DNA of 53,569 nt, taken from a virus. Positions 5,771-23,536 of the stretch are shown here, piece by piece (positions within the stretch are counted from its first letter, which is position 1; every line of letters begins with the position of its first letter). Location: the IMG/VR virus record IMGVR_UViG_3300045988_160359, positions 1 through 53,569 of that record. The stretch is one strand, 5' to 3'. The notes below the pieces were generated by a model. It saw only the letters and a list, made by a program, of their open reading frames with translations. It ran no database searches and was not told the origin of the DNA. A program made the translations under genes and the position numbers.

Positions 5771-6145
5771 TTAAATGCGAGAAATCCAGTCGTTGAGAAT
5801 TTCGTCTACGGTTTTACCTTTCTTAATCGCACCCTTAGAGTTTGTCTCAAACCGGAAACCAGGCAGTTCAATCTTGAAGTTACCAGGGTCCTTGTAGAAT
5901 TTAAGGAAGTTGTCCATTACCTTAATGACGTCCTCGCCCTTCAACTCTGCACCCTTATAGCCGACGTAGGCCGCATAGTCGTTGATAGCATCGGCAACCG
6001 CTTCCGCTCGGGCCATCTTTTCTTTGTCCTTCTTCTGGTCAGCATATGCCTTGGTGGCGTCATTTAGCATCGCAGTCATTTCCTTAGCAATATCCTCAGC
6101 GCTCTCGCCATTCATTAAGCGCGTCAGAATATCGTTCTTATTCAT
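5771..6145 (-). CDS. Hypothetical early protein (124 aa)
   Basis: Intact ORF. Confidence 0.5.
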   Translation of the reverse strand: MNKNDILTRLMNGESAEDIAKEMTAMLNDATKAYADQKKDKEKMARAEAVADAINDYAAYVGYKGAELKGEDVIKVMDNFLKFYKDPGNFKIELPGFRFETNSKGAIKKGKTVDEILNDWISRI

Positions 6146-6249
6146 ATAAATAACCTCTTTTCATTTTGTATACATATATTATACAAAAAATTTTTTTAAA
6201 AGTCAAGTGAGAAAAAAAATGTTTTTTTTTATCATTATAACATAAATTT

Positions 6250-6490
6250 TTTTTTATGTCAAACCGGGCGGCATATGGGTACCGCTCGGGGCCCTTTACG
6301 GGATTTTTAGGGCGCATATGGAGGCCGCTAGAATTACGGAAAATTTTCCATATGGGGGTACAGATCGGAATTTCGGACCGCAGCGCCCGCGCTCGGCCCG
6401 TTGTATCCTCCCCTTTTATTATACCACACTGGGCTCGCGCTGTCAATAGGCAAAATGAACAAAAATTAAGGGTGGATTTCTCCACCCTTA
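6250..6490 (-). promoter_or_regulatory. Variant terminator-promoter-leader module upstream of 5771..6145
   Basis: On the minus strand the gggtggagaaatccaccc hairpin plus T-run terminator is followed by TTGACA-N17-TATAAT and a long GC-rich leader. Confidence 0.4.
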
Positions 6491-6494
6491 ATTT

Positions 6495-7103
6495 TTAATC
6501 CTCCCACGGCAGTTCGGGCGAGATTTCGTCCAGTTCCGCCTTGTCGTTATAGTCAGCGTTGATTGCCGGAATGTCGATAAACGAACGGCTTGCCACATAG
6601 TCAGCCATGTGTACCAGTCTGTCGATAGGAGTAAACGGTCTATCCGCCTTGTTGGTAGTCCACTGACCCATGTGGGACTTGATGGCTTGCGTCAACTCAT
6701 AGGGGCAATCCTCATTGAAAAACACCATCCATGTCCGGCAAACTTGGTCAGCGGCAATCGCGCCGTGCTGGGCATACTGTTCCTTGTCGAACTCGTGTAA
6801 GCCATACTTGGCTGTATCGTGGAGCAGACAGGCAACTCGTGCGTAGTCCTTGCGCTCGTCAGTCAGATACGCCCACTGGCTCATACGGAGCAATTCCTCA
6901 CAGAACCACGCCACCGCCTTAGTGTGCCGAACCAGACCGCCCTCACCCTGCGACATAGTCGGATGGAACTTACCGGAAGAACTTGCGCCGATAGTCTAGA
7001 AATAATCAGGAACGCGGCAGTCGAAGTAGAAACGCACGAACGAGCGCAAATCCTCGGACTGGATAAACTCGATTTCGTGGTCAAAAAACTGGCTCTTATT
7101 CAT
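6495..7103 (-). CDS. HD-domain phosphohydrolase; the reading frame contains one in-frame TAG at codon 36
   Basis: HD motif LLHDTAKY, with an upstream His in GKFHP/VRHTKAV. A strong AAGGAG lies 8 nt before the ATG at 7103. Codon 36 is TAG, at plus-strand 6996-6998. The track ORF runs 6495..6956, but its ATG has no RBS. Confidence 0.55.
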
Positions 7104-7227
7104 AGTAGTATCTCCTTGCTGTTGGTGGGTTCCAGCTCCCTCAGATTGTTTATAGTATAGCGCATTTCGGGACAAAATGCAATAGTCAATTTATACAAAC
7201 TTTCGCTGGAAAAATTATTGAAAATGT

Positions 7228-7350
7228 GTATTGACAAAAATGCCGGGCGCCACAATCGTGAGCGCCCGGTTCATTATACCACAGTCAGAGGGTGTTGTCA
7301 ATAGTCAAATTGAATAAAAAAATTGCTCTCAATTGAGAGCAATTTGATAA
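7228..7350 (-). promoter_or_regulatory. Promoter / hairpin / terminator module, minus-strand promoter only
   Basis: On the minus strand TTGACA-N17-TATAAT is followed by the conserved hairpin ccgggcgcc...ggcgcccgg. The aaattgctctcaattgagagcaattt hairpin sits at the gene boundary. Confidence 0.5.
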
Positions 7351-7673
7351 GTTCGACGAATGGTAATTTCAACAGACTTCGGCTTCACAGGACAGGCAAA
7401 TCTGTCATTTCTCACAAACACGCCGTATCCCATTTTCTGCCAATGCTCACGGTTTTTGTCCTCGTATCGCAAAGTGTTATACTTGGAGAGCGGTATCGAA
7501 AAATCGTAAACAAATTCAGAATTGTGCGGTAAACGGTGAATGGCGGTTTTGCGATAGTTTCTTGTGTGTTCCTGCTGTCTGCGTTTTAGGTCGTTAGTAG
7601 TGCCTATTTTCAGAATGTATACACCATTTTCATCATAATAGTGCCCTACATACAAAAATTCCTTGTTTTTCAC
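7329..7673 (-). CDS. GIY-YIG nuclease-domain protein
   Basis: Motifs YVGHYY...GVYILKIGTT...RRQQEH. The start is placed at an in-frame GTG preceded by GAGGA. The track ORF starts at a TTG at 7727. Confidence 0.55.
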   Translation of the reverse strand: MKNKEFLYVGHYYDENGVYILKIGTTNDLKRRQQEHTRNYRKTAIHRLPHNSEFVYDFSIPLSKYNTLRYEDKNREHWQKMGYGVFVRNDRFACPVKPKSVEITIRRTYQIALN

Positions 7674-7723
7674 ACTTTTTTCCTCATTTTTCAGGGAAAA
7701 TGGGGGATTTCTCCCCCATTTTC

Positions 7724-8122
7724 TCAACTTTTCGGCTTGCGCTTCTGCACAAGGGTCAGTTCATAGGAATTTTCACCGATTTTGAACGCAATCTGTCTCT
7801 CTTTGTTGGTAATTTCCACATTTTCACAGGCATTTTCGCTGTTTTCGGTCAAAAATCTTGCCAATTCAGCGATAATGGACGCTTTCGTGGGATTTGCCTT
7901 GCGTTCTCTCGTGGTGAATTTGTATGCGGTGGGGGTTTTGCGTGTGCCAGTTTTGGCGAATTTCTGTGCGACTTTGAGCTGTTCTTTCGACAGGTCAAAA
8001 TCCTGTGCCTTGCCCTTGTCGATTTCTCGGTCAGAGTTCCACACGGCTTCTGCTTCATCAGCCGTCCAGCCCATTTTCGCCATAGCGTTTTTCAGCCATT
8101 CAGTTTTGGAGATTTCAGCCAT
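7724..8122 (-). CDS. Cassette protein B (132 aa), paralog of 10339..10695
   Basis: Shares the motif PTAYKF-x2-RERKANPTK-x-IIAEL with 10339..10695. Confidence 0.55.
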   Translation of the reverse strand: MAEISKTEWLKNAMAKMGWTADEAEAVWNSDREIDKGKAQDFDLSKEQLKVAQKFAKTGTRKTPTAYKFTTRERKANPTKASIIAELARFLTENSENACENVEITNKERQIAFKIGENSYELTLVQKRKPKS

Positions 8123-8182
8123 AAAACACCGCCTTTTTAGATTTTAGAGGATAGGGGGGGAGAATGTCTCCCCCCTCATACC

Positions 8183-8635
8183 TTACTTGGCGGTGAAATA
8201 CGCCTTGCGCTTATCCTCGATACGGTCTGCCTGACCGTCCAGCACCATCTGACGCACCAGAGAGGAGACTTTCTGGTTGGATGCCTCGGCGATAGCGGGG
8301 ACAGACTTCATCAGAGCGGACACAGTGAACTTCTCGCCCTTGTGGGCGTCCAGGAACGCCTTGATGTCAGCCTTGATACCCTCGTTTGCCACCTGCGTGG
8401 CGGTCGGCTTCTTGTCCACGGTGTTCTTGCGGTCGAGCAGTTCCAGCTCATGCTTGGCGAACTCCGCCATCTCTGCGGGAGAAATGTCCACATAGACAGT
8501 CTCGAAGTCCTCGGAAGTGCCGATACGCTGGGAAATGGGGAACTTGAACTCGCCCACCTCGGCAAAGGTTTTGAGGGCGGTGAAGTAGTCGCGCTTGGTC
8601 ATACGGCGGTTAGCGGTGGAAGTGATAGCAGTCAT
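8183..8635 (-). CDS. Cassette protein A, paralog of 10747..11178
   Basis: Shares HELELLDRKNTVDKKPT-x-TQ and NQKVSSLVRQMVLDGQ...EDKRKA with its paralog. The start is placed at the internal Met of MTAITST. Confidence 0.5.
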   Translation of the reverse strand: MTAITSTANRRMTKRDYFTALKTFAEVGEFKFPISQRIGTSEDFETVYVDISPAEMAEFAKHELELLDRKNTVDKKPTATQVANEGIKADIKAFLDAHKGEKFTVSALMKSVPAIAEASNQKVSSLVRQMVLDGQADRIEDKRKAYFTAK

Positions 8636-8894
8636 AGTATCAACCCTTTCTGCGTTTTTAGGTGTCGCCCACCATATTGTTGTTTCCCTCTTGGAACATC
8701 TATATTCTAACACATATCCGAAGCCTTGTCAAGACTTTTTTTCGGATTTGTGGAATTTTTTTTAAGGTACACGCCCCGCCGGAGAACCTCTCGCCCTCTC
8801 CCTTGGAACAATTATATACTACCACACCCTTGGGCAGATTTCAATAGTCAATACTCACAAAAAATGGGATTTTCAACATCCAAAATTTGTGCAA

Positions 8895-9050
8895 AAAAAC
8901 ACTTGACAAAATTTGTGCTCCGTGGTATAATGGAAATTTCGGGTGCCATAGCCGTGAGCGCCCGACCCATTTTAACACATTTGAGCGCATTTGTCAATAG
9001 GTAAAATGCACAAAAATAAACCAGCGTAGTTGGCTACTACGCTGGTTCCC
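8895..9050. promoter_or_regulatory. Convergent-promoter / hairpin / terminator module
   Basis: The plus strand has TTGACA-N17-TATAAT at ~8903-8931. The minus strand has TTGACA-N17-TAAAAT at ~8997-8969. Between them lies the hairpin cgggtgccatagccgtgagcgcccg. The accagcgtagttggctactacgctggt hairpin follows. Confidence 0.55.
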
Positions 9051-9407
9051 CTGTTGATACTCGCCAGCCGTCCGGACAGCCAGCCCACTTCTACACAGCT
9101 TGACACTTAGAGCAGGCGCAATGCCCATGTAAAGGTCTTTCTCGGCACGCGGTGAATGTGGTTAGAACTTCGTACCCAGTCCCAATTTCTAACGAGGGGT
9201 TCAAGATGGCGGTTGAGAAGAAATTATTGAGTGGGACAAACACTCTATTAAACTCCATCTTGGCTGGGGTCTTAATCAATCTATAATACATATCTAATCA
9301 ATAAATCATAGATTGATTACTAAGGTGGTCGATACAATCGCCATTTCATTTTTCTCACCTCACGATGTTAGTATAGCATAGGCGGGGCTGTTTGTCAAGA
9401 GTTTTTT

Positions 9408-10091
9408 TCAAAATTCCAAATCATCACAGACGCCATAGCCGGAGAAATCGAGGATAACCGGAGAAATGCCAATGTAGCCGATGTTTGAGCCGTGGAGGTC
9501 GTTGATGTGATACTTTTTAACGAACTCACAGAGGGCGATAACCTTGCGTTTGCCGTAGATAGAAACGGCAACTTTCGCCCATAGCCCATCGAGGTCGCGC
9601 CCGTAGCCGTTAACATCAGCTTTGCGGAACTGACGCTCGATTTGAGAAATACGACAGTCGGGGACAGTCTTTGCGATACGCGAGAGACGAGTTTTTATAC
9701 CGTCCTCACTCCAATGGATTTTGTGTGCGCTGTTGGTGATAATCTGTTGTGCGGTAAACGCAACAGGGTCATCACCCTCACGCGGAGGAACAATGTAGCC
9801 AGCCAACTCGGTGGCGGGGAAAAAATCCGCGAGGTTTGCATCTACGGCTTTCTTATACACAGCCACTTCGCGCTCTGCATCCCGCGTCTCCGTAGACCAT
9901 TTGAGGACATACCCCAAATCAGGGAACACCAGACATTCCTTGCTTGCGCCGTTGCTGGACGCTACTTTGACATTAGGATATGCGTCGTGGATAACGCGGG
10001 CTAAGGTGTCCGCGTCTCTGACGCGCCTTGGCTTTTCAGATACCGCCTGCTGAATGGTCAGGATAAAATCCTGAACTCTCGGAAACTTCAT
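9408..10091 (-). CDS. Protein-kinase-like early protein (APH/CotH-like fold; 227 aa)
   Basis: VAVYKK (VAxK-like), YHINDLHGSNIGY (Brenner-type HxDLHxxN catalytic loop) and ILDFSGYG (DFG-like). The RBS is AAAGGAG. Confidence 0.45.
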   Translation of the reverse strand: MKFPRVQDFILTIQQAVSEKPRRVRDADTLARVIHDAYPNVKVASSNGASKECLVFPDLGYVLKWSTETRDAEREVAVYKKAVDANLADFFPATELAGYIVPPREGDDPVAFTAQQIITNSAHKIHWSEDGIKTRLSRIAKTVPDCRISQIERQFRKADVNGYGRDLDGLWAKVAVSIYGKRKVIALCEFVKKYHINDLHGSNIGYIGISPVILDFSGYGVCDDLEF

Positions 10092-10194
10092 CGTTCATCG
10101 CTCCTTTCAGTATCATTATTATAACACATTACAGGGGAATTGCAATAGTCAATACCTACAAAAAACGGGATTTCCAACATCCAAAATTTGTGCA

Positions 10195-10340
10195 AAAAAA
10201 CGCTTGACAAAATTGCCAGTGGGGGTGTATAATAGAAATTTCGAGCGCCACATACGTGGACGCGCGACCGAATTATACCACACGCGCCCGGATTTGTCAA
10301 TAAGCAAAATGCACAAAAATGAGGGAGATTTCTCTCCCTC
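10195..10340. promoter_or_regulatory. Convergent-promoter / hairpin / terminator module
   Basis: Plus strand TTGACA-N18-TATAAT and minus strand TTGACA-N17-TATAAT. The central hairpin is gcgccacatacgtggacgcgc. On the minus strand a gagggagagaaatctccctc hairpin plus T-run terminator follows. Confidence 0.55.
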
Positions 10341-10695
10341 ACTTGCGCGGGCACGACAGCACAACCTTGTATTTTGTTCCATCAAGCGTGAATAAAAATT
10401 CGCGCTCCGCGTTGCTCACGTTCAGGTCAGTCGCGCCGTATGTGGTCAGTGTCTCGGTCAGCAGAGTGATGATAGTCTGCTTTGTGGGATTAGCCTTTCT
10501 TTCTCTTGGTGCGAACTTGTATGCGGTCGGCTGGCGTCCTACTCCCCGCGCTTTCTTGCTTGCCTTTTCCTGTTCTTCGGTCAGCGGAAACGGATTGCCG
10601 CCCTTGTCGATGATAGCATCTTGAACAATAATGTCCTTTGCTTCGGCTTCGGTGCAATCCAGCTTTCGCATGAGGTCGGCAACTCGGTCAGTCAT
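10339..10695 (-). CDS. Cassette protein B' (118 aa)
   Basis: PTAYKFAPRERKANPTKQTIITLL, paralogous to 7724..8122. Confidence 0.55.
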   Translation of the reverse strand: MTDRVADLMRKLDCTEAEAKDIIVQDAIIDKGGNPFPLTEEQEKASKKARGVGRQPTAYKFAPRERKANPTKQTIITLLTETLTTYGATDLNVSNAEREFLFTLDGTKYKVVLSCPRK

Positions 10696-10746
10696 GCGGT
10701 ACTCCTTTCAGGGGTAGGGTGGGGATTGCTCCCCACCCTTTGAGGT

Positions 10747-11178
10747 TTACGCGCTCACCTTGCGGAAGAACGCCTTGCGCTTGTCCTCCACGCGCTCCAC
10801 CTGCTTATCCAGCACCATCTGCCGGACGAGGGAGGACAGCTTCTGATTGCTCATGTCCTTGCAGACGGGGAACTCTTTGAGCATCTCGCTGATGGAATAC
10901 AGCCGGTTGCTCTCCATAGCGGACAGGACAGTGGTCTTGATGACCTCATTCTCCTGCTGGGTCTTGGTGGGCTTCTTATCCACGGTGTTCTTGCGGTCGA
11001 GCAGGTCGATTTCGTGGGTGATGAACTCCACCAGCTTGGGGTCAGCCTTGACCTCGGACAGGTTCAGCAGGGCGGTGAAATTGTCGCGCTTGGTGGGCTT
11101 GCGGGTGGTGGTGTTAGTGTTAGCCATAGTATCAATTCCTTTCTCCATTTGGTTTTGAGGGCTTTGCCCTCCTGACAT
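10747..11178 (-). CDS. Cassette protein A'
   Basis: Paralogous to 8183..8635. The true start may be the internal Met of MANTNTTT at about 11127. Confidence 0.5.
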   Translation of the reverse strand: MSGGQSPQNQMEKGIDTMANTNTTTRKPTKRDNFTALLNLSEVKADPKLVEFITHEIDLLDRKNTVDKKPTKTQQENEVIKTTVLSAMESNRLYSISEMLKEFPVCKDMSNQKLSSLVRQMVLDKQVERVEDKRKAFFRKVSA

Positions 11179-11880
11179 TATCTATTATAACAGCTTGCGC
11201 TGGGATTGTCAAGAGTTTTTTCAAAATTCTTGATTTTTTTTGATAGTGTCAACAGGGGAACGCTCCACAAGGGTTCACAGACGACTTACCACCTCGCCTG
11301 ACGAATAAGGTGTTGCTGTTGGTTCAACGTTTCCATGCGCATGGACGAACTGACCAATCTACTCACTTTTCGTTCATCGTTTGGGTTTACTGCGCTGGTA
11401 TAGTCCTTACTTCCTTTACTCTCACACGGTTCGCGACCCGTGGATTTCTTGGGTGGGGCTATTCCCCTCTTGACATTATCAATTATAACACAGGTGCTGG
11501 GGATTGTCAAGAGGTTTTTTGAAATTTTTCCAAATTTCTGAAACCTGTCTACACAGGCGACACATTAGACGCATCTGCCGTGCCGTTCCCCTCTTGACAT
11601 TATCCATTATAACACAGATGCTGGGGATTGTCAAGAGGGGAAATGCGGGTCAGTTACCGAGTTGTCACACCCGCCAGCGTGGCTCCCCCGAGGAGCAACT
11701 TGCTGTCCCCTCTTAACATTATTCATTATAGCACCTTTGATGGAGTTTGTCAAGAGGGAATTTTGGTCTTTTTTTTCAGTACGGCGCGCTCTCACTTACA
11801 CTTGGGACATTACCTACCATTAGCCCAGCCCACGGGGTCTCACCCCCTCTTGACATTATGTAGTATAGCACAGGTGAGCA
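11165..11880 (-). repeat. Tandem array of five ~50-bp palindromic promoter repeats (CTCTTGACA ... TGTCAAGAG)
   Basis: Copies at ~11168, 11464, 11590, 11707 and 11845. On the minus strand each reads TTGACA-N17-TATAAT(TATAGC). They are separated by 70-250 nt of non-coding sequence. Confidence 0.6.
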
Positions 11881-11929
11881 TGAATTACAATAGGCAAACT
11901 ATACAAGTTTCGGGAAAAATAAATAAAAA

Positions 11930-12090
11930 AATTTGTGTAAAAAAACTCTTGACAAAATTGCTGGCGGGGTGTATAATGGTGAATTCCGGCCGAGACGCGC
12001 GAAATCGGCCGGCCATTATACCATGCCCAGGCGCGTTTGTCAATAGGGAAAATTATACAAAAAATGAGGGGAAAATCCCCTCATTTTTTA
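11930..12090. promoter_or_regulatory. Convergent-promoter / hairpin / terminator module
   Basis: TTGACA-N17-TATAAT on both strands. The central hairpin is ccggccgagacgcgcgaaatcggccgg. A bidirectional terminator follows: gaggggaaaatcccctc with A/T runs on both sides. Confidence 0.55.
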
Positions 12091-12621
12091 GTCCATCTGA
12101 CAAGCGAGAAATGCGTCCCGCTTTTCGTTCAGTTTGACGATTTCACCCGCGATTTTGTCAGCCCTCATAGCCAACAGACGCCCATAGCTTCTGCGCCACG
12201 CCAGCATACCATCGGGATTGACCGTGTAAATATACTTTTCCTTTTCCACGGTCTTGGTGTCCTTACGCTCCGTGCGGAAATTCTGTCCATTCATAGTCCG
12301 CAGAGCGTTCTGCGCCACTTCCGGCAACCGCATCCAGTCATACTCGGTCATCAGGGCGTTGCCATCCTTGTCAATCATCCAGATTTCCGCTTCCCACGGG
12401 TCGAGCGTGATTTCCTTGGTGGATTTCTCGGTGCGAACTGCCTTGATGATACCCTCGTCCCGCAGGAACGCCAGAGAATTGTAGGTGTATCGCCGATAGT
12501 CGTGCTTTGCTTTGGTGAAGTCCTCGGAAGTGAACTCCTTATTCCCGAACAGGTCTACCAGCCACTTGTAGGTCTTGACCGTGCGGTTGAAGTTGTGAAC
12601 GTTAGCGTAGCGAGCTTTCAT
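12088..12621 (-). CDS. Hypothetical early protein (177 aa)
   Basis: Intact ORF. Confidence 0.5.
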   Translation of the reverse strand: MKARYANVHNFNRTVKTYKWLVDLFGNKEFTSEDFTKAKHDYRRYTYNSLAFLRDEGIIKAVRTEKSTKEITLDPWEAEIWMIDKDGNALMTEYDWMRLPEVAQNALRTMNGQNFRTERKDTKTVEKEKYIYTVNPDGMLAWRRSYGRLLAMRADKIAGEIVKLNEKRDAFLACQMD

Positions 12622-12733
12622 AGTTTTTCTCCTTTTCTATTGGTGGGGCTTACCATCGTTTCCCCTACCTTGAATTTGTAATGTTATTATAGCATGGAAT
12701 GGGGGCGTTGTCAACCCCCATTCCAAACTTTTT

Positions 12734-12949
12734 TTACGGGGGATCGTGCTTGCGGTACTCAGTCAGGTCAGGGTCGCCAATCCATTCAGAAAAGTCAACC
12801 CAGGAGTCGAACACGTGAAGAATTTCGATTTCATCAGGTTCAAACACCCCGCCACAACAGGCGCAGATTACGAAACCATTTTCAAGCTGGATACCAGCCT
12901 GAACGCCATCAGAATGGTCGCCCTTAAAAAGCACTTGCTTAATAGGCAT
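12734..12949 (-). CDS. Hypothetical small protein (71 aa)
   Basis: Intact ORF with a CACCGG motif. Confidence 0.4.
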   Translation of the reverse strand: MPIKQVLFKGDHSDGVQAGIQLENGFVICACCGGVFEPDEIEILHVFDSWVDFSEWIGDPDLTEYRKHDPP

Positions 12950-13016
12950 TGTACTTACCTCCTTGTTTTAGTATAGTCATTATACCACATGAGAAAGGGG
13001 CTGTCAAGCCCCATTC

Positions 13017-13673
13017 TCAAAACTTGGGAAAACATTTTACCTCAAAGGGCGCGTCCCATGCGTGGACGTTCTTGGTGTATCGCTTGTGCATCTTCTGACA
13101 GGCGAGGAAAATTTCCATTTCCTGCATAGCGTCAGACAGGGCGGTGTGTTCTTCGGAAAAGTCGGGGTTATCGTGGAGATAACCATACACCGCTTCGACA
13201 GAGGTTGCACAGGTCTTGCCATTCTTGGAACGCTTGCCATGCTCTCGGCAGTATTCCGCATAGGACTTTTTGTGGGTGATAGTTTCCAGTGCCATCAGAT
13301 AAAGGTCGATGAACTCGAAATTATCCAGCAGGTCGCGGAAACAGGTCTTGCAGAAGTCAAAACCGGAATTGTACGCCATCACATAGCGAACGCCGTAATG
13401 GTCGCACAGGTTTTTGACTACCTCATAGGCTTCGCGCTCCGTGGCGATAGCGGAGATTTCGCCAGTTTTGAGCCGTTCGGCATATACGGGAAAATTCTTC
13501 TTGGCGTAGCCATCGAGGGCGATTTCGTCATAATGCTCCATCACCAGCAGGGAAGTGGTGGCGAGGATTTCGCCCTTGCGGTCGTGGATAATCGCGCCCA
13601 CATTATACATTCCCGTGGGGTGAGCCGCGCCGCCTACCGTTTCAGTGTCCAGCGTGCAGTAGATATTTTTCAT
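13017..13673 (-). CDS. DnaQ-like DEDDh 3'-5' exonuclease
   Basis: Exo I LDTETVG, Exo II YNSGFDF and Exo III HTALSDA. Confidence 0.6.
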   Translation of the reverse strand: MKNIYCTLDTETVGGAAHPTGMYNVGAIIHDRKGEILATTSLLVMEHYDEIALDGYAKKNFPVYAERLKTGEISAIATEREAYEVVKNLCDHYGVRYVMAYNSGFDFCKTCFRDLLDNFEFIDLYLMALETITHKKSYAEYCREHGKRSKNGKTCATSVEAVYGYLHDNPDFSEEHTALSDAMQEMEIFLACQKMHKRYTKNVHAWDAPFEVKCFPKF

Positions 13674-13784
13674 TATTCATTCTCCTTTTCTCTTGGTTGG
13701 GCTTACCATCGTTTCCCATACCTTAATTACATTACATATTATAGCAGACAGGGGTGAGGTTGTCAACCCCTGTCTGCTATTTTT

Positions 13785-14231
13785 TTACAGGTTTCGCAAA
13801 ATTTCCATCAGGAGGTCGGCGTTGTATGCCATATTGTGAGTGTTTGCCGTCCACTCGTTGAGGTTGCGCTGTTCGTCATCGAACAAAATCGCGTTGGGGC
13901 AGGTCGCACAGTTGGACTTGGGAACGCCATAGGGGACAATATGGATTTCGTCCCACTGAACGCTGGGGAGATGTTTTGCCAGCCAGTCGCGCTTGACTTC
14001 GGCTACTTCGGCATTGAACTTATCCGTTCCGCTCTTGGACAGCCAGCTGATGATGCCGATATTGTAGCCACGCGCCTGCAAGCGGTTCAGGTAGCGGGCG
14101 AGGGTGGAGAAATGGACAAGCGGGCGAGCGTCCGCATATACGCTTGTGTCAGCGGCTTCCAGCTTTGCCAGCCAGTTAGGGTCGCCATACAGGTCGGCGA
14201 TAGTCCCGTCCATGTCCAGATAGATAGTCAT
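13785..14231 (-). CDS. HAD-superfamily phosphatase (DxDGT)
   Basis: MTIYLDMDGTIAD at the N-terminus after GAAAGGAAG. The track ORF extends to 14354. Confidence 0.55.
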   Translation of the reverse strand: MTIYLDMDGTIADLYGDPNWLAKLEAADTSVYADARPLVHFSTLARYLNRLQARGYNIGIISWLSKSGTDKFNAEVAEVKRDWLAKHLPSVQWDEIHIVPYGVPKSNCATCPNAILFDDEQRNLNEWTANTHNMAYNADLLMEILRNL

Positions 14232-14384
14232 AGTATCAACTTCCTTTCTTGATTGTAATGCTATTATACAGGATAAAACGCAATTTGTCAACAGTTTTTT
14301 TCGGTTTTGCTCTTGGTCATTTCGCACAAACTTTCGGGATGCGCGCTTGGGCAAATTTGTTCAATTTACCTATTGACAAAATTG

Positions 14385-14520
14385 CTGGCAGGGTGTATAA
14401 TGGAAATTTCGAGCGCCAGGGCCGTGGGCGCTCGGCCGAGTATACCACAAATAGGGGTGTTTGTCAATAGGTAAATTGAACAAAAAAAATCTCCCAAATT
14501 TGGGAGATTTTTCAATTTAC
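14385..14520. promoter_or_regulatory. Convergent-promoter / hairpin / terminator module
   Basis: Plus strand TTGACA-N17-TATAAT. Minus strand TTGACA-N17-TATACT. Hairpin tcgagcgccagggccgtgggcgctcgg. Terminator tctcccaaatttgggaga. Confidence 0.55.
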
Positions 14521-14720
14521 TTGTTGGCGTGGAGAATGGAGTGCAGGATTACGACAATGAGCCAAATGACCAGCACCAGCTTCCACGAGAACACGATGGC
14601 GAAAGAGCCGATGGACGCGATGCCGATAGCAGGGAGAAGCCAGCAGAACAGCCAAACCAGTCCGGCGGTACACAGGAAGTCGAAAGCGGCAAGTGCCAAA
14701 AACAACAGAACGATGAACAT
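14517..14720 (-). CDS. Small hydrophobic membrane protein (67 aa)
   Basis: Almost entirely hydrophobic. The RBS is GAGAGGAG. Confidence 0.5.
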   Translation of the reverse strand: MFIVLLFLALAAFDFLCTAGLVWLFCWLLPAIGIASIGSFAIVFSWKLVLVIWLIVVILHSILHANK

Positions 14721-14722
14721 TT

Positions 14723-14920
14723 TTATTCTCCTCTCTTAAATACGATGGTTTTGTGTGTGGTAAAGGTCGCTCCGCGAACAAGCGGGTCATTTGCCAGGTC
14801 ATTTGCGATGAATGACAAGGCTTCATTCTCGTTCTTGAACCACTCGCTATTAGTGAAGCGTTCGCCCCAAGAAGTTATGCCCCACCACTCGATGTTGTAG
14901 TAGACATCTTTGGTTTCCAT
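14723..14920 (-). CDS. Hypothetical small protein (65 aa)
   Basis: RBS AAGGAGGG. Confidence 0.5.
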   Translation of the reverse strand: METKDVYYNIEWWGITSWGERFTNSEWFKNENEALSFIANDLANDPLVRGATFTTHKTIVFKRGE

Positions 14921-14933
14921 TGTTAATCCCTCC

Positions 14934-15083
14934 TTAGTAAATTTGTTCGCCGTTGTGATAGCGTTCGTATCTCGCTTCGAGGAAGTCGAGAATGAACTCG
15001 AAATCGTCCGCGTCCGCGGGGTCTACGAACGCCTTTTCGAGGATTTCGCCGGTGTGGTCATTGAAAACTTTAATCATTTCCAT
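14934..15083 (-). CDS. Hypothetical small acidic protein
   Basis: The start is placed at MEMIKVF after AAGGGAGG. Confidence 0.4.
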   Translation of the reverse strand: MEMIKVFNDHTGEILEKAFVDPADADDFEFILDFLEARYERYHNGEQIY

Positions 15084-15149
15084 TTTGTTGTCCTCCCTTA
15101 TTTGATGATACCATTCTAACACAGAGGGGCTGATTTGTCAACCCCTATT

Positions 15150-15626
15150 TTACAAATTTTTGCTTTCTGCCACGAAATATTTTGCGCCATACTGCGCCAC
15201 AATGTCCTTGACCTTTTTGCTCTCAGCTTGCGTGGCACAATAGAAATTAAATAGCGTGTGTTTGTTGCTAATCTCAATGTATGAGTGTGGAATGTCTCGC
15301 AGGTCAAAATCCACGGCGGCTCGATACTTAGTAGGAACAGTCATTTCGATTTTCCACAACTTTTCTTTGCGCGCCAACTCCTCAACCCACTTAACCGCCA
15401 GCACACCAATGAAATTACAGGCGGCGGTGATGCCCATTTTTGCCAACGTAGAAACGCCGTCAATGTTAGTCAAAATAATAACATAGGAATAGAAGCCATA
15501 GGTTAGCGCATTGATACCGGCGGCAACCCATTTATTGCCTTTAACAGTCAGAATAGACTTGATGGTGGACAGCACCACATTCACAGCGGTACAGATAATG
15601 AATAGAATAATAGCGTTCATAATCAT
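15150..15626 (-). CDS. Membrane protein with two N-terminal TM segments and a cytoplasmic domain
   Basis: The start is placed at MIMNAIILFIICTAV after AAAGGAG. Confidence 0.45.
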   Translation of the reverse strand: MIMNAIILFIICTAVNVVLSTIKSILTVKGNKWVAAGINALTYGFYSYVIILTNIDGVSTLAKMGITAACNFIGVLAVKWVEELARKEKLWKIEMTVPTKYRAAVDFDLRDIPHSYIEISNKHTLFNFYCATQAESKKVKDIVAQYGAKYFVAESKNL

Positions 15627-15762
15627 CACTCCTTTTTCAGTATAATAATAATAACACATTTAATTGAAAATGTCAAGAAAAATTTTTGTCGTAGTTAAAT
15701 TCTCACAAGATTAGTTTTTTGTTCCGTGTAGTTAGTTATAGCTAAACTTGAAAAGAGGGGCG

Positions 15763-16134
15763 TTAATGCCCCTCTGTTAGTTTGTTATACATACTCCACA
15801 GCGTTTCACAGGAATGGTTAGTCTGTTCAGCCATCCATACAATTTGGTCATCAGTCGGCAGGTATTTATCATCACGCCACCCGAAAAATCTTTCACAGGA
15901 CTGGTATGCCTTATACTCGTCCTCTGTCAGTTTGCCGCGCAACCGCCAGTCCCAGCAAACAGAGTCCACCATAGACCATATACACGCGCCTACGATAGTC
16001 AGTACCATAATCGCAACCGTTGCATATAGCACCAGTGTGGATTTTATCATACCATACACCAGCAGACCGAAACCACACACAATGAGGAAATTGCGCCCAT
16101 ACCTTTTAAGGGTCAACTTCTGAAAATCAGACAT
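15763..16134 (-). CDS. Membrane protein (123 aa)
   Basis: Two hydrophobic segments. Confidence 0.5.
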   Translation of the reverse strand: MSDFQKLTLKRYGRNFLIVCGFGLLVYGMIKSTLVLYATVAIMVLTIVGACIWSMVDSVCWDWRLRGKLTEDEYKAYQSCERFFGWRDDKYLPTDDQIVWMAEQTNHSCETLWSMYNKLTEGH

Positions 16135-16345
16135 TTTCTCTACTCCTTAACATATTGTCAGTAAATTCGTTGGAGAACTCCTCGGCGAAATCCTCACCAT
16201 AACCACGATTGGCAATTACCTCCATAACTGTCTCAATGCCGGACATATAATAGGGATTGCCGTTGATGGCATCATAACGCCCTTGGAACATAGGGCATTC
16301 GCGCAGGTCGCTGAAAACCATCTGATACGCTTTCTTCAACTCCAT
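16127..16345 (-). CDS. Hypothetical small protein (72 aa)
   Basis: Intact ORF. Confidence 0.45.
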   Translation of the reverse strand: MELKKAYQMVFSDLRECPMFQGRYDAINGNPYYMSGIETVMEVIANRGYGEDFAEEFSNEFTDNMLRSRENV

Positions 16346-16424
16346 TGTTCTTACCTCCTTGTTTCAGTATAGCCATTATACCGTATTACAGGATAGAAGT
16401 CAATCGTCAAATTGCACAAAATTG

Positions 16425-16560
16425 CGGCGAAAAATTTGTGGAGTATACCTATTGACAAAATGCCGGGCGCCACAATCGTTGGCGCGCGGCCGAAAATGTC
16501 AAGTGAAAAATTATACAAAATTTGGGCTGGATTTTTGTTCATCCAGCCCAAATGATTTTT
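16425..16560. promoter_or_regulatory. Degenerate copy of the promoter / hairpin / terminator module
   Basis: It has TTGACA boxes and the gccgggcgccacaatcgttggcgcgcggc hairpin, but weak -10 elements. The gggctggatttttgttcatccagccc terminator is present. Confidence 0.4.
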
Positions 16561-16807
16561 AGTCCTTTTCAAAAATAAAATCCGGTTTGAAAATGTAGAG
16601 GAACGCCACAGCGTAATGGAAAATCGGAATGATTGAGCCGGTGATGACTGTCAGCCAGTTAGAAAACGGACTGCGCTTGCTTTCGCCCCGGTTCTTGAAT
16701 GCTTCCTGCGCCTGTTCCTTGTTTTTCTTCATAGTCGAAATGATGCTTGCGATGCCCAGCCAGTAGAGAACGATACCGATGATGTAAATAATGAGAATGA
16801 TTTTCAT
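16559..16807 (-). CDS. Small membrane protein (82 aa)
   Basis: Two TM segments. Confidence 0.5.
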   Translation of the reverse strand: MKIILIIYIIGIVLYWLGIASIISTMKKNKEQAQEAFKNRGESKRSPFSNWLTVITGSIIPIFHYAVAFLYIFKPDFIFEKD

Positions 16808-16891
16808 AAATGTATCTCCTTTTTATTTGATTTACTTTTCCGATTTTGGAACGAAGCCACGGTTACTGGCTTTTGCGCTGAGAGTAAATGA

Positions 16892-17173
16892 TTATTCAAA
16901 CAAAACTTTTTCCCGGATGGTATAGCTTGCGATAATAGCACCGGAAAGCAAAACATAGGTTTCAAAACTGTATTTTTTCTTTTTGGAGGTATACGCCCTA
17001 CGCTTGCCGTTGAAATGCTCCTGAATGGTAAAACCCATTTCTGCATCAACGAGGTACAGGAAATAACTCAGTTCTTCAAACAGAGATAAAACCATTTCTT
17101 CGGCATCAGCTCGATTACCAAACAGTGCTATTAGTCTGGATGAATTTTCAAATACGGCATACCCAGTTTTCAT
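16892..17173 (-). CDS. Hypothetical small protein
   Basis: The start is placed at MKTGYAV after AAAGGGAGG. Confidence 0.4.
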   Translation of the reverse strand: MKTGYAVFENSSRLIALFGNRADAEEMVLSLFEELSYFLYLVDAEMGFTIQEHFNGKRRAYTSKKKKYSFETYVLLSGAIIASYTIREKVLFE

Positions 17174-17190
17174 TTTACTTACCTCCCTTT

Positions 17191-17391
17191 TTAGTGCTTT
17201 GGAACGAAACCCCGGCAGAATTGACGACACCAGGTGCGCTCGTTCTTTCGCTTCATACATTTACTCTCGCCCATACTGTTCATTACCTTGCCGTGGTTAT
17301 AACCCCAGTATTCACAGTTGGAACATCTTACCTTGTCAGGCTCTACGCAATAACGGTCGGCCAGTTCAGTTCTGATTTCAAAAGTAGTCAT
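17191..17391 (-). CDS. Cys-rich small protein (66 aa)
   Basis: CVEPDKVRCSNCEYW...C...C. Confidence 0.45.
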   Translation of the reverse strand: MTTFEIRTELADRYCVEPDKVRCSNCEYWGYNHGKVMNSMGESKCMKRKNERTWCRQFCRGFVPKH

Positions 17392-17479
17392 TCGGGGTAT
17401 CCTCCTTTATTTGATGTATTTATTATACCACACTTCTTGGTTGTTGTCAATAAAAAATGTGGGATTTCTCCCACATTTT

Positions 17480-17710
17480 TTATTTATTTTCTAACCGCAT
17501 TTTATCAGATCCGATAAGCGCGGCCAGCAGGTTTGAGGTATCACGGACTTGGCTCATAGAATACTCTTCGCCAATGTTGGAAATAGCGTATTCTTGTTCG
17601 TAGTCATACATCAAATCGAACAGGTGAGAAATGACCTCACGGGCGTCTTGAAGTTTGTTCTTTTCCTCTTGGGTAAGTTGAACCTGAACGTTTGAGGTAA
17701 TAATGTTCAT
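17480..17710 (-). CDS. Small protein (76 aa), paralog of 17726..17953
   Basis: LTQEEKNKLQDAREVISHLFDLMYDYEQEY aligns with LTENERKTLRDAYDILNELYDVIADNDCEY. Confidence 0.45.
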   Translation of the reverse strand: MNIITSNVQVQLTQEEKNKLQDAREVISHLFDLMYDYEQEYAISNIGEEYSMSQVRDTSNLLAALIGSDKMRLENK

Positions 17711-17725
17711 TTGTTGTACCTCCTT

Positions 17726-17953
17726 TTATTTACCGATTTCCACTTTTTCAGTGGGGGCAAGCATTTGAAGCACATTGGCTGTAAGCGCGACGTCCACTCT
17801 GTCATAGCCATTCCCGCAAGTATCGCTCACATACTCGCAATCATTATCGGCGATGACATCATACAATTCATTGAGAATGTCATAGGCGTCGCGCAAGGTT
17901 TTCCGTTCATTCTCTGTCAACTTGGCATAGATGGGAGCTTTGATAATTTCCAT
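17726..17953 (-). CDS. Small protein, paralog of 17480..17710
   Basis: The start is placed at MEIIKAP after AAAGGAG. Confidence 0.45.
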   Translation of the reverse strand: MEIIKAPIYAKLTENERKTLRDAYDILNELYDVIADNDCEYVSDTCGNGYDRVDVALTANVLQMLAPTEKVEIGK

Positions 17954-18022
17954 TTTGATATTCTCCTTTCTCTTGGTATTATCTATTATAGCAGATAAGG
18001 ACTTGTTTGTCAAGCCCTTATC

Positions 18023-18352
18023 TTAATTTTTATTCATCAGGTAGTTAGTCTCGATAGTCCAACCGCAGTCTTGACAGGTGTAGTAAAATGTTTCGCTCAT
18101 ACGGTAGCGAGTAGAGGAAGAGAAGCGGTATTCGCCGCCGCACTTGACACATACGCCATTATTGAAAGTGTCGCAGTCATTGATGTGTTCCTGTCCCATC
18201 ATAGCACCAACACCGAAGAAGATAGCACAGCAGATAATGAATGACAGTACCTTGCTCACCCAACGGTCGCAACACCCAATAGCAACAGATAAACCGATAG
18301 GCAGACCAGCGACACCACCCATAAGCAGACCACCGATAATTACATCAGACAT
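18023..18352 (-). CDS. Membrane protein with a C-terminal zinc ribbon
   Basis: The start is placed at MSDVIIGG after AAGGGAGG. CVKCGG...CQDCG. Confidence 0.45.
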   Translation of the reverse strand: MSDVIIGGLLMGGVAGLPIGLSVAIGCCDRWVSKVLSFIICCAIFFGVGAMMGQEHINDCDTFNNGVCVKCGGEYRFSSSTRYRMSETFYYTCQDCGWTIETNYLMNKN

Positions 18353-18422
18353 TTTTTCGTCCTCCCTTGTTTTGTTATACTCATTATAGCAGAAATGGGG
18401 CTTGTTGTCAAGCCCCAATTTT

Positions 18423-18746
18423 CTACTTTACTACATAAAATTCGGGGTGGCGTTCTTCATTCTTGCGAATGCGCTTGACCAACTGTTGAGGTAAGCGGTT
18501 TTTGCCAGCACTCTTGTATATAGCGACAGCCCGTTCAAAGGTTGCGGGGTATGCGGTGATGATGAAATTCTCATATAAGTCCAGCACCAAAATGATGCCA
18601 GTCGAGAGCAAACGCAGGCGCGCAGTTTGGCGTTGGTCAATGACCTCAATCATCACGCGGTCAGAATATCCGAGATATTCCTGTAAGAGGGCGAGCCGGT
18701 TAGCCCGCTCCTCTGTCAGATGGTTCGACATAGTGTAGTTTTCCAT
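18423..18746 (-). CDS. Hypothetical protein (~107 aa)
   Basis: The start is placed at MENYTMSN after GGGGTGG. The track's 186-aa ORF fuses it with the upstream gene. Confidence 0.4.
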   Translation of the reverse strand: MENYTMSNHLTEERANRLALLQEYLGYSDRVMIEVIDQRQTARLRLLSTGIILVLDLYENFIITAYPATFERAVAIYKSAGKNRLPQQLVKRIRKNEERHPEFYVVK

Positions 18747-18751
18747 ATTAC

Positions 18752-18928
18752 CACCCCATATTGAACACGAAGCGCACCAGACCGATACAGGCAACGCCAT
18801 ATAGGATAGAGCCAACGAGGAAGTGCCAGTCGTGCGTCTGACGATAGACCATATACCCGCCGACACACTGAACGCCAGCGAAGCCAGCGAGGGCGAGGAT
18901 TGCGAGGATTGCGATAGTAGCCATTGTG
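18752..18928 (-). CDS. Small membrane protein (~58 aa)
   Basis: MATIAILAILALAGFAGV... after AAAGGAGG. Confidence 0.35.
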
Positions 18929-19044
18929 AATGACCTCCTTTAATTGATGGTATAAGTATAGCATACCTACTGGGCGTTGTCAACCGTCAAATTGCACAAA
19001 TTTCGGGATAAAAAATTGTTGAAAATACCGAACACAAAATGCTT

Positions 19045-19190
19045 GACAAATTGGCTGGGCTGTGGTATAATGGAATTTCCGGCCGCAACAGTCGTGGGCG
19101 GCTGGCCAAATTATACCATAGAAATGCTATTTTGTCAATAGGCAAAATGCACAAAAAAATGAGCCAAAATTTGGCTCATTTTATAATTCC
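19045..19190. promoter_or_regulatory. Convergent-promoter / hairpin / terminator module
   Basis: TTGACA-N17-TATAAT on both strands. Hairpin ccggccgcaacagtcgtgggcggctgg. Terminator gagccaaaatttggctc. Confidence 0.55.
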
Positions 19191-19284
19191 TATTCCGATA
19201 AGACAGAGGTACAGAAGAACACCACCGAAACCGAAAAATACAATCAGTCCCATAAACCACTGCCACAATCTTTCGTGTTTCATA

Positions 19285-19470
19285 TTATCTCAGCCCCCTA
19301 AAATCAACCACTTTGCCGTCTACCATCTCATGCCAGTAGAGCTTATCATTGTAGCGGATAGCCCGCACGCGGTAGTTGTGATTATCCCATGTGGTGTATT
19401 CTTTGTCGATTACATACTCGCCATAGCGGAGAACAGAATTGATAAATGTGTTGGTAAATGTCTGTTTCAT
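19285..19470 (-). CDS. Hypothetical small protein (61 aa)
   Basis: Intact ORF. Confidence 0.45.
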   Translation of the reverse strand: MKQTFTNTFINSVLRYGEYVIDKEYTTWDNHNYRVRAIRYNDKLYWHEMVDGKVVDFRGLR

Positions 19471-19480
19471 ATTCGCGCCC

Positions 19481-19702
19481 TCACATTCCGCGGACTGCGC
19501 CGCACTCGCTCATACCGTTTTCATCAAAGCGGGCGATAGGCTCGCCGTTCATCTCGCGGAGTTCAGCCCACGCTTCACCAAAGCCGCCATCAGCCAGCAT
19601 CAGCCGCACCAGCTCACACGCCGTTTCAAACTTGTTCCACGCGGCTTCATCACCGCTCACGCGCACGACTTCAACATTATTGACTACCACACTGTATTCC
19701 AT
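19481..19702 (-). CDS. Hypothetical small protein
   Basis: The start is placed at MEYSVVVNN after GAGGGAGG. Confidence 0.4.
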   Translation of the reverse strand: MEYSVVVNNVEVVRVSGDEAAWNKFETACELVRLMLADGGFGEAWAELREMNGEPIARFDENGMSECGAVRGM

Positions 19703-19783
19703 CTTGAATACCTCCCTCATTTGATAATACAATTATAGCACGCTTATTTATATTTGTCAATAGAAAAAATGAAAAAATCCGAA

Positions 19784-20062
19784 TTAGCTTCGGATTTTTT
19801 CAACGGTGATGATATTGGAATTGTCCCAGTTATAAGACACGGAGAACTGCTCATATAGACCATATATAAACCGCGTCCAGCCTTTGGTGCAGAACTCTCT
19901 CTGCCAATATCTTTCCAGAGGGCGCAGCTCCCACTGGATATACAACTGTTCTTCAAGGAAATCGCATATACTGGTGTCGGTGTCCCACTGGGCAGTAGCA
20001 GTTTCGCTATACTGCGCCTCGCTGTCGATGAACCTAATCTTGTACTCACGTGTCATACTCAT
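19784..20062 (-). CDS. Hypothetical small protein
   Basis: The start is placed at MSMTREYK after AGAGGAGG. Confidence 0.4.
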   Translation of the reverse strand: MSMTREYKIRFIDSEAQYSETATAQWDTDTSICDFLEEQLYIQWELRPLERYWQREFCTKGWTRFIYGLYEQFSVSYNWDNSNIITVEKIRS

Positions 20063-20174
20063 GACCTCCTCTGTTTTATGTATACAGTATAGCACAGGGG
20101 TGCGTGAATGTCAATAGTCAAAATGCACAAATTTCGGGATTTGGAATGTATAATTTTTGTTCATAATGCCTATT

Positions 20175-20290
20175 GACAAAATTGTTGGGACATGGTATAA
20201 TGGTAAATTTCGCGCGCCAGGGCCGTGGGCGCGCGACCGAGTATAGCACAAATGGGGCGCGTTGTCAACAGGCAAAATGACCAAAATTTT
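20175..20290. promoter_or_regulatory. Convergent-promoter / hairpin module
   Basis: Plus strand TTGACA-N17-TATAAT. Minus strand TTGACA-N17-TATACT. Hairpin tcgcgcgccagggccgtgggcgcgcga. Confidence 0.55.
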
Positions 20291-20346
20291 CAATCGAATT
20301 ATGGGCATAATGCCATATATAAAAAACAAGGGCTTTCGCCCTTGTC

Positions 20347-20538
20347 TTAGTAGCCCCTCTTTTCCAGTCTTTCCAGCCGGTCGGCGAGGGAACGCGCCAG
20401 CAGAACTTTTTTCCATTTCATAAGCTCGGCTTTGTTGCCCTCGGTGTTCGCCCAGATGCCCCAGGTGATGCCCTCGTTGATGATTTCCGCTTTCTTCATG
20501 CCCATCAGGTTTTCGAGATACTGTTCAAAGTTTGTCAT
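20347..20538 (-). CDS. Hypothetical small protein (63 aa)
   Basis: Intact ORF. Confidence 0.45.
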   Translation of the reverse strand: MTNFEQYLENLMGMKKAEIINEGITWGIWANTEGNKAELMKWKKVLLARSLADRLERLEKRGY

Positions 20539-20635
20539 AGCGTTTAGCTCCTCTCTTTTGATGGTTTAATTATAGCAAGTTAAACGCAGTTTGTCAATAG
20601 TTTTTTCAAAAAAAATAAAAAAAATAGTCGAGGGA

Positions 20636-20800
20636 TTAACCCTCGACTACTGCGACAACCTCGCCGTTCATACACGCGTGAACGTCGAACTCAACGCCTT
20701 TCCAGCTATCGCTGTAAAGGTACGTCCAGTCATCGCCCAGCACATAGGGCAGAGGCTTTACAGGGAGCACGCCGTCGGGAGTCTTTACAGTAGTCATCAT
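20636..20800 (-). CDS. Hypothetical small protein
   Basis: The start is placed at MMTTVKTP after GAAGGAGG. Confidence 0.35.
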   Translation of the reverse strand: MMTTVKTPDGVLPVKPLPYVLGDDWTYLYSDSWKGVEFDVHACMNGEVVAVVEG

Positions 20801-21106
20801 AGTCTTGCGACCTCCTTCATTTGATGGTTTAATTATAGCACCGTAGGTACATTTTGTCAAGCCCTTTTTCAAGAAATTTCAAAAATTTCTTCGTAGCCAT
20901 CATCCCATACCTGCCGGCATTTAGTGTTATCTTCATTAGCGTATTCGTCATAGCCAAAGCCCATGGACTCAACACGTCCTACAAAAATCCATTCCATTTA
21001 ATTATCTCCTTCCTTTTATCTGTTTGTATTATAATACAAAGGAGGGCTTTTGTCAATACTTTTTTCAAAATTTTTTCAAAAAAAAATAGGGCTTCCGCCC
21101 TATTTT

Positions 21107-21415
21107 TTAGCAGTAGGCAAGCGTCATAGTCGCCCATTTCAGCACGGAAATTTGATTACACGCTTTGCCGATTTCCATAGCTTCACGCTTTGTCGCCACG
21201 CGCTTGCTCCGGTCAACGAACCAAATTCCCCCACTATACCACACGCCACAATTTCCGCCGTAGTCTCTCACCGCGTCAATGGCTTCCTGTGCGGTCTTAC
21301 ATTCGATGCCCTCTGTGGCAACCTGCCAGCCGGATTTATAGTTTACCTTTTTGCCCATTTTGAGGGTCAGCCCGTCATTGTTGCCCAGCTTGCGGATAGA
21401 ACGAATGTTAATCAT
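21107..21415 (-). CDS. Hypothetical protein (102 aa)
   Basis: Intact ORF. Confidence 0.5.
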   Translation of the reverse strand: MINIRSIRKLGNNDGLTLKMGKKVNYKSGWQVATEGIECKTAQEAIDAVRDYGGNCGVWYSGGIWFVDRSKRVATKREAMEIGKACNQISVLKWATMTLAYC

Positions 21416-21534
21416 GTTGTGTATCTCCTTTGTTGTTTTGTTGTACTCATTATAACACGCCTATTTCGTTTTGTCTATTGGCAAACTATACAAATCGGGA
21501 TTGCGAATTTTGTGCGAAATTTTCGCATTTTTCT

Positions 21535-21640
21535 CTTGACAACTGGTGGGCTGCTGTGGTATAATATTTCGGGGCGCCACGTGCTTGATGAGCGCGACGA
21601 TGCTCGTTAAAATTTTAACAATCCAACAGCAAAAAATAAA
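21535..21640. promoter_or_regulatory. Promoter / hairpin module, followed by one TTTTAACAATC iteron
   Basis: Plus strand TTGACA-N18-TATAAT. The hairpin is cggggcgccacgtgc.... aaaattttaacaatcc lies at about 21613. Confidence 0.45.
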
Positions 21641-21646
21641 GGACGC

Positions 21647-22369: not shown

Positions 22370-22382
22370 AATTACTTCCTCC

Positions 22383-22619: not shown

Positions 22620-22691
22620 TGTATCGTCCTCCTTTGTTTTACTGTAATCATTGTAGCACACATAGGGCAATTTGTCAAGAGGTTTTTTCAA

Positions 22692-23520: not shown

Positions 23521-23536
23521 CAACAAAAAAACCTCC

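Follow-up and report, generated by a model that had tools for sequence, protein, structure and literature searches.

The stretch of viral DNA analyzed here (the window: all 53,569 nt, positions 1 to 53,569, of IMG/VR record IMGVR_UViG_3300045988_160359) carries a two-gene cassette in two diverged copies, A-B (cassette 1) and A′-B′ (cassette 2), both on the minus strand and both with A preceding B (Table 1). A and B constitute a new, uncharacterised family pair that recurs in more than 100 uncultured phage genomes. In this large gut phage the pair is part of an early block (6000-24000, minus strand) written in the standard genetic code, in distinction to the TAG-recoded late region (24000-53569, plus strand). 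The two cassettes can tentatively be thought of as paralogous pre-early host-takeover operons in which an abundant nucleic-acid-binding protein, A, works with alternative partners, B or B′. This is the interpretation developed below, and it is put forward with more doubt than confidence.

That the cassettes are copies of one another is borne out by formal alignment: A and A′ are 43% identical over 145 columns (BLASTP E 9e-39), B and B′ 36% identical over 123 columns (E 2e-17). A first-pass annotation, made from the letters of the sequence alone, had proposed just such a duplicated and diverged cassette and had named non-significant E-values as the outcome that would refute it; the E-values for both pairs are significant. 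The motifs that it quoted are all present, HE(L/I)(E/D)LLDRKNTVDKKPT and NQK(V/L)SSLVRQMVLD...EDKRKA in the A proteins and PTAYKF..RERKANPTK..II in the B proteins, as are the common gene order and, for each pair, a σ70 promoter and a hairpin terminator of its own. Its upper limit for cassette 2, position 11178, has been moved, since the ATG there coincides with the -10 hexamer or falls just after it and the conserved ribosome-binding stretch GAAAGGAATTGATACTATG ends at 11125; A′ therefore starts at the ATG at 11127, and its homologues are mostly called as 126 aa. The possibility that A and B are themselves distant paralogues of each other was considered and rejected (hhalign probability 0.2%).

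The fold of A is taken from an AlphaFold model of A′ (predicted local distance difference test score, pLDDT, 80) that consists of a helix-turn-helix and a wing: a three-helix bundle with a recognition helix is followed by a β-hairpin, which is the arrangement that defines a winged helix. Judged by this model, A belongs to the winged-helix superfamily at the level of the fold, and it fails the threshold of every named family. MarR, PadR, ArsR, Penicillinase_R and Mnd1 all stay below the Pfam threshold, the best value being that of a single member against Mnd1 (E 6.8e-4), whose winged-helix model is weakly matched by 39 of 58 A members; folds of the ArsR, PadR, MarR, Fur and Zalpha types are 3-17% identical to A, with no Pfam threshold reached. 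Residues Q95, S98, R102 and Q103 of the recognition helix and R112, E114, K116 and K118 of the wing are invariant among A proteins, and the recognition helix is almost equal in A and A′ (NQKVSSLVRQMVLD and NQKLSSLVRQMVLD, respectively). All four cassette proteins are basic (isoelectric points, pI, 8.8-9.5). Conservation of Q95, S98, R102, Q103, K116 and K118, together with the basic pI, suggests that A may be a nucleic acid-binding protein, which would make contact through its recognition helix and basic wing. The N-terminal helical half of A has a conserved motif of its own, HE..LL..KN..KKPT, with no match to anything.

B is predicted to comprise three N-terminal helices, a conserved basic linker (PTAYKF..RERKANPTK), one further helix and a three-stranded sheet. 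Fold searches gave no match for it (BFVD gave only one uncharacterised homologue), and B and B′ are small basic proteins of unmatched fold. None of the four cassette proteins has a significant match in Pfam, PHROGs, NCBIfam or PADLOC, the hits to PADLOC defence and anti-defence models being at chance level, and sequence and profile searches of PDB with the cassette proteins yielded nothing. tblastn with A′ and B against 50,697 annotated phage records gave no T5-like match, and the only tblastn hit among annotated phages and plasmids was one unannotated scaffold; the source names of A and B homologues are without exception 'hypothetical protein'. The first-pass annotation had recognised neither family and had called for profile searches and structure prediction. 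The former (hhalign, PDB profiles and family libraries) produced no match above threshold and the latter, for single proteins, produced the winged helix of A′ and a B lacking any counterpart, so that the families are as unfamiliar as it had supposed.

What ties A to B is the constancy of their arrangement. At 90% identity, A homologues fall into 205 clusters and B homologues into 3424; a full HMMER search with B gave 1179 clusters at 50% identity, the best 150 of which are all 90-165 aa long and free of domain fusions. All relatives reside on contigs from metagenomes or metagenome-assembled genomes, typically 80-200 kb in length. Co-occurrence, another check proposed at the outset, was followed in two sets of loci. 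In 38 related loci there are 58 A-B pairs, every one of them with A followed by B on one strand, and B is found without A only where a contig end has cut A off; in 80 independent IMG/VR loci A lies directly upstream of 113 of 116 B genes. Two cassettes are present in 33 of those 80 (6 kb having been scanned on either side), and the related genomes mostly carry two. It might be argued that A and B have independent functions and are neighbors only through joint duplication and inheritance, with no cooperation between them. A few solo A genes without B, the frequent presence of a separate promoter for B and the weak correlation of A with B distances (r 0.16) would be in line with this. Nevertheless it is unlikely: A directly precedes B in 171 of 178 cases, in phages whose surrounding genes vary, and pairing that stays constant while its surroundings change would be difficult to account for unless the pairing itself were selected.

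The two halves of the cassette have had different histories. B proteins separate cleanly into two groups, one of longer proteins (B) and one of shorter proteins (B′), and each two-cassette genome holds one of either. Within a genome B and B′ are on average 36% identical, and orthologues in different genomes are far closer; by this sequence comparison B and B′ are ancient paralogues whose duplication is older than the clade. A, unlike B, does not split into two orthologous groups: A and A′ of one genome have a mean identity of 69% and are, in most genomes, each other's nearest relatives. Recent gene conversion was rejected as the source of this likeness, since identical residues are specified by the same codon in only 45-70% of cases, about as in B/B′. 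Natural A/A′ chimeras, whose N-terminal half comes from one A type and whose C-terminal half comes from the other, do exist in metagenomes (P0027, P0029, P0074 and P0105), and their make-up shows recombination between the two A genes in phage populations. Occasional recombination combined with selection probably keeps the A copies alike. Their mutual closeness and almost invariant recognition helix make it probable that A and A′ bind the same target. The earlier suggestion that an ancient duplication has been retained holds for a whole phage clade, most of whose members have both cassettes; its corollary, that the copies target different partners, agrees with the two ancient groups of B and disagrees with the 69% identity and shared recognition helix of A.

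Expression signals also differ between the halves. Upstream of almost all A genes there is a stretch rich in A, and the promoter combines a perfect -35 hexamer with an extended -10 element. An exact copy of the 19-mer GAAAGGAATTGATACTATG runs up to the start codon in 19 of 64 A genes, and within the related loci this 19-mer is essentially confined to A starts. Moreover, compensatory changes mark two types of leader hairpin (they were read directly from the sequences of the window and of loci L005-L037, and loop lengths vary). The first, GGGU-[5 bp]-ACCUAC-[5 bp], has TTGCG/CGCAA, TCATG/CATGA, TGATG/CATCA, TGACG/CGTCA and others as stems; the second, [4 bp]-AGGUUCA-[4 bp], has AGAC/GTCT, AGTC/GACT, GGAC/GTCC and CGAC/GTCG. 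The A-specific 19-mer and the compensatory hairpins, taken together, suggest a translational operator that is not represented in Rfam. In nearly all related pairs the A stop codon is followed by a GC-rich hairpin, which in many cases lacks a U tract; the A-B spacers of 40-120 nt contain a hairpin and often a promoter, the latter being B's own, situated beyond the A hairpin in many relatives in which the spacer is longer. GC content at third codon positions (GC3) is higher in A than in B in 54 of 55 pairs (means of 0.64 and 0.48, p 1e-10); in the window it is 0.89 for A′, 0.77 for A and 0.53-0.60 for B and B′, and within the early block codon bias is strongest in A. From codon bias, the invariant translation start region and the structured leaders we infer abundant synthesis of A, subject to post-transcriptional control, and a lower output of B.

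These features bear on the main rival arrangement, possible but doubtful, which is that of an autoregulated effector operon following the logic of anti-CRISPR-associated (Aca) proteins: A would repress its own strong promoter, and B and B′ would be effectors, directed, for example, to anti-defence or host takeover. The promoters are indeed extremely strong, it is B and B′ that have diverged, and there are candidate operators. Of 65 A promoters, 12 have the spacer palindrome nCACA-N3-TGTGn, which is absent from all 21 B promoters, and in the promoters of repeat family D8 in the window the -35 region recurs in inverted form just after the -10 element, placing CCTCTTGACA-N28-TGTCAAGAGG around the core. 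A strong early promoter and the combination of a small helix-turn-helix protein with a small protein of unmatched fold are likewise shared with anti-CRISPR-Aca operons. However, the gene order is opposite to that of known acr-aca operons, the winged-helix gene being first in all pairs, and it is A that has the strongest expression signals and codon bias, which is unusual for a low-copy repressor. At 12 of 65 the palindrome was rejected as an operator common to all A promoters, neither PADLOC nor any other anti-defence family provides a match, and the pair does not qualify as an Acr-Aca operon.

The order of a DNA-binding gene and a small second gene also resembles that of type II toxin-antitoxin systems, and A′ has a weak, sub-threshold match to the RelB antitoxin model (E 0.14). 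That the pair is a toxin-antitoxin or abortive module, in which A would be the DNA-binding antitoxin and B the toxin, is nonetheless very hard to credit: no such family is matched significantly, a hairpin and often a promoter separate A from B, and the genes, in two copies each, belong to the early region of large phages, in whose genomes lysogeny genes were not noticed.

The setting of the cassettes is that of a phage with two codes. GC content in the window is bimodal, 45-49% at 6-24 kb and ~30% elsewhere. Between 24 and 53.5 kb, open reading frames (ORFs) cover a fraction of 0.26 under the standard code and of 0.86 when TAG is read as sense; a tape-measure-like ORF (42676-50991, plus strand) has 63 in-frame TAG among its 2771 codons. 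The minus-strand genes of the GC-rich block at 6-24 kb have none. Contigs near-identical to the phage of the window are 194-200 kb long. This, with the TAG-dependent coverage, identifies the source as a large siphophage of ~195 kb with TAG-recoded late genes and an early block of ~18 kb in the standard code, and disposes of the 'streamlined' genome of the first-pass annotation. The arrangement of recoded late and standard-code early genes is known in general terms for recoded gut phages (10.1101/2021.08.26.457843). No DNA-level similarity to annotated phage records was found, and no tRNA (suppressor tRNA included) or Rfam family was detected within the window. Promoter-like sites are greatly over-represented in the early block, with 27 in 5.3 kb where 5.5 are expected, and 10 of these are perfect TTGACA-17-TATAAT matches. 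Host-type consensus promoters and the standard code, set against the TAG-recoded late genes, make the early block look like a pre-early or host-takeover region, in agreement with the host-takeover role that the first-pass annotation had named, beside anti-defence, as typical of such a duplication; for anti-defence there is no PADLOC hit.

The closest architectural parallel is with phage T5, whose first-step-transfer region specifies the deoxyribonucleotidase dmp and the small DNA-binding dimer A2 and contains the repeat-rich untranslated injection stop signal iss (10.1101/866236). Both phages have a block of small genes with very strong host-type promoters, a deoxyribonucleotidase, a small DNA-binding protein (putatively A in the present case) and, at one edge, a long untranslated stretch of repeats or palindromes. 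The NT5C-like gene, in recalling dmp, suggests early breakdown of host nucleotides. On the other hand, A and B lack sequence similarity to any T5 protein, A1 and A2 included (tblastn, annotated phages), T5 A1 is large and B is small, and T5 is not recoded. The resemblance is, by this analogy, one of architecture (gene content, promoters and palindrome stretch) and not of family membership. The host-takeover module of Bacillus phage SPO1 likewise gathers into one cluster many small, uncharacterised early genes with their own strong σA promoters and terminators, as here; we know of no duplicated winged-helix pair in it.

At the edge of the early block, a 20-bp palindrome, ATTGTTAA-N4-TTAACAAT, is present in nine near-copies with 0-2 mismatches (21603-23513), two copies at ≤3 mismatches being expected over the whole window; eight of the nine (22720-23513) are in an untranslated, strand-skewed stretch of ~1.2 kb. 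By analogy, the array could serve as an origin of replication or as a counterpart of the T5 injection stop signal. Should A bind it, the cassettes might serve the handling of the phage genome, through origin or centromere binding or through completion of DNA entry in the manner of T5 A2. The eight copies in their untranslated stretch and the likeness of the block to the T5 first-step-transfer region (10.1101/866236) would be consistent with such a role, but it is improbable, given that annotated phage records searched by tblastn yield no similarity to T5 proteins and that the cassette has no NTPase or helicase partner. The palindrome was also rejected as an element of the whole clade: among the loci examined it is confined to the closest relatives, and conservation of A's recognition helix extends far beyond these.

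To return to the proposal of paralogous host-takeover operons, it runs as follows. Both cassettes are read from host-type consensus σ70 promoters, in standard code and without TAG. A would be made abundantly and would bind DNA or RNA, A and A′ recognising one target. B and B′, encoded beyond the hairpin that follows the A stop codon and produced in smaller amounts, would be two alternative partners or effectors of A, acting through the only part still common to both, the basic linker PTAYKF..RERKANPTK. The process served would likely be DNA- or RNA-directed host takeover, or a switch from early to middle expression. Several observations weigh against this scheme. B has its own promoter in many relatives, implying that A and B are not always co-transcribed, and solo A genes exist. 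The chief caution is that distance matrices of A and B are weakly correlated (r 0.16, Mantel p 0.011), which argues against a tight co-evolving A-B interface. No operator is conserved across A promoters (the spacer palindrome being limited to the minority noted above), and a winged helix can also mediate protein-protein contacts. A more specific version, which we regard as a long shot, would have A, as a new kind of abundant pre-early factor, recognise a nucleic-acid element shared by the clade, with A+B and A+B′ complexes timing the shut-off of the early block and thereby gating TAG-recoded late expression; equally conjectural, as part of that version, are its candidate targets, the hyper-dense consensus promoters or the invariant leader and start region of A's own mRNA.

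Phages that reassign a stop codon must run their early programme in the code of the host before switching codes, and little is known of the proteins that run it. Across a widespread group of large gut phages, few features of the early block are as well conserved as the A/B pair, which joins what is probably an abundant nucleic-acid-binding protein to a fold without known match. If the pair does control host takeover or the timing of early and late expression, it would open a way to studying the staging of infection by recoded phages; should it prove to be an ordinary regulator-plus-effector operon, annotation still gains a new and well-defined pair of families.

Table 1. Features of the two cassettes and their surroundings (positions in the window)
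Feature	Position	Strand	Description
Gene A	8183-8635	-	150 aa, ATG at 8635; N-terminal helices with 23-aa insertion, predicted C-terminal winged helix
Gene B	7724-8122	-	132 aa
Gene A′	10747-11127	-	126 aa, predicted winged-helix protein
Gene B′	10339-10695	-	118 aa, short-type paralogue of B
Cassette 1 promoter	8704..8732	-	TTGACA-17-TAGAAT, TG extension, 11/12 matches
Cassette 2 promoter	11184..11212	-	TTGACA-17-TATAAT, TG extension, 12/12 matches
5′ leader of A	8636..8697	-	GAAAGGGTTGATACT at its end, immediately ahead of ATG (variant of family-wide ribosome-binding stretch)
5′ leader of A′	11128..11177	-	hairpin GAGGGC-AAA-GCCCTC and 19-mer GAAAGGAATTGATACTATG
A-B intergenic hairpin	8149..8182	-	GC-rich, no U tract, GGGGGGAGA-CATT-CTCCCCCC, -21.5 kcal/mol
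A′-B′ intergenic hairpin	10716..10739	-	GC-rich, no U tract, GGGTGGGGA-GCAA-TCCCCACCC; spacer -23.1 kcal/mol
Cassette 1 terminator	7696..7717	-	after B; hairpin GGGGGAGAAATCCCCC then TTTTCCC; hairpin and T run at 7717-7703
Cassette 2 terminator	10313..10341	-	after B′; GAGGGAGAGAAATCTCCCTC then ATTTTTG
Convergent-promoter module	8883..9019		~140 nt, upstream of cassette 1; repeat families D3, D9, D14
Tandem array of four A′-type promoters	11482..11894	-	upstream of cassette 2; family D8; no ORF behind
NT5C-like 5′(3′)-deoxyribonucleotidase gene	13785-14354	-	early block
HD-domain phosphohydrolase gene	6495-6956	-	early block
T5orf172/GIY-YIG-like ORF	7329-7670	-	Pfam E 4e-4; directly after B terminator
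Kinase-like gene	9408-10091	-	227 aa, motifs only; between the cassettes

The face-to-face promoter modules and the gene-less promoter array, together with the dichotomy of code and GC content and the palindrome array, may merit attention equal to that given to the cassettes. The promoter of cassette 1 is homologous to that of A′ and belongs to repeat family D8; that of cassette 2 holds the palindrome CAGC-GCAA-GCTG in its spacer. A module of ~140 nt is present in seven copies (7187-7323, 8883-9019, 10190-10320, 11929-12065, 14353-14489, 19036-19157 and 20205-20287) and consists of a bidirectional terminator, a consensus minus-strand promoter, a GC hairpin (CGGGCGCC..GGCGCCCG) and an opposing consensus plus-strand promoter; the cassette 2 terminator doubles as the first element of the next such module. 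Promoters placed face to face in this way would generate short antisense RNA or transcriptional interference between early units. The gene-less array of four promoters upstream of cassette 2, in which no tRNA or Rfam match was found, could be a source of small RNAs or could provide promoter decoys.

The gene between the cassettes, which the first-pass annotation had called kinase-like, has a core that is invariant in five homologues (V62-x-K64, E75, D198-L-H-x-x-N203 and D215-x-x-G218) and so displays the catalytic Lys, Glu, D-x4-N loop and DFG-type motif of kinases. Pfam, PHROGs and NCBIfam have no match for it, and no kinase came up in sequence and profile searches of PDB. An invariant kinase core that profiles do not see suggests that it may represent a very divergent phage kinase-like family. 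As a conserved partner of the cassettes it was rejected, being found in 7 of 36 loci at varying positions; its location between the two cassettes is peculiar to this phage and phages closely related to it. Neighbors that are conserved are the NT5C-like gene (24 loci) and a 218-aa protein (28 loci). The T5orf172/GIY-YIG-like ORF has a GC content of 0.40, below that of its neighbors, and is found in only 13 related loci, on which grounds it may be a mobile, homing-endonuclease-like insertion. In eight related loci (L004, L011, L017, L018, L023, L026, L030 and L036) the contig ends 0.4-4.6 kb from the cassettes; these ends may be assembly breaks at the repeated promoter modules, or may reflect a terminal repeat.

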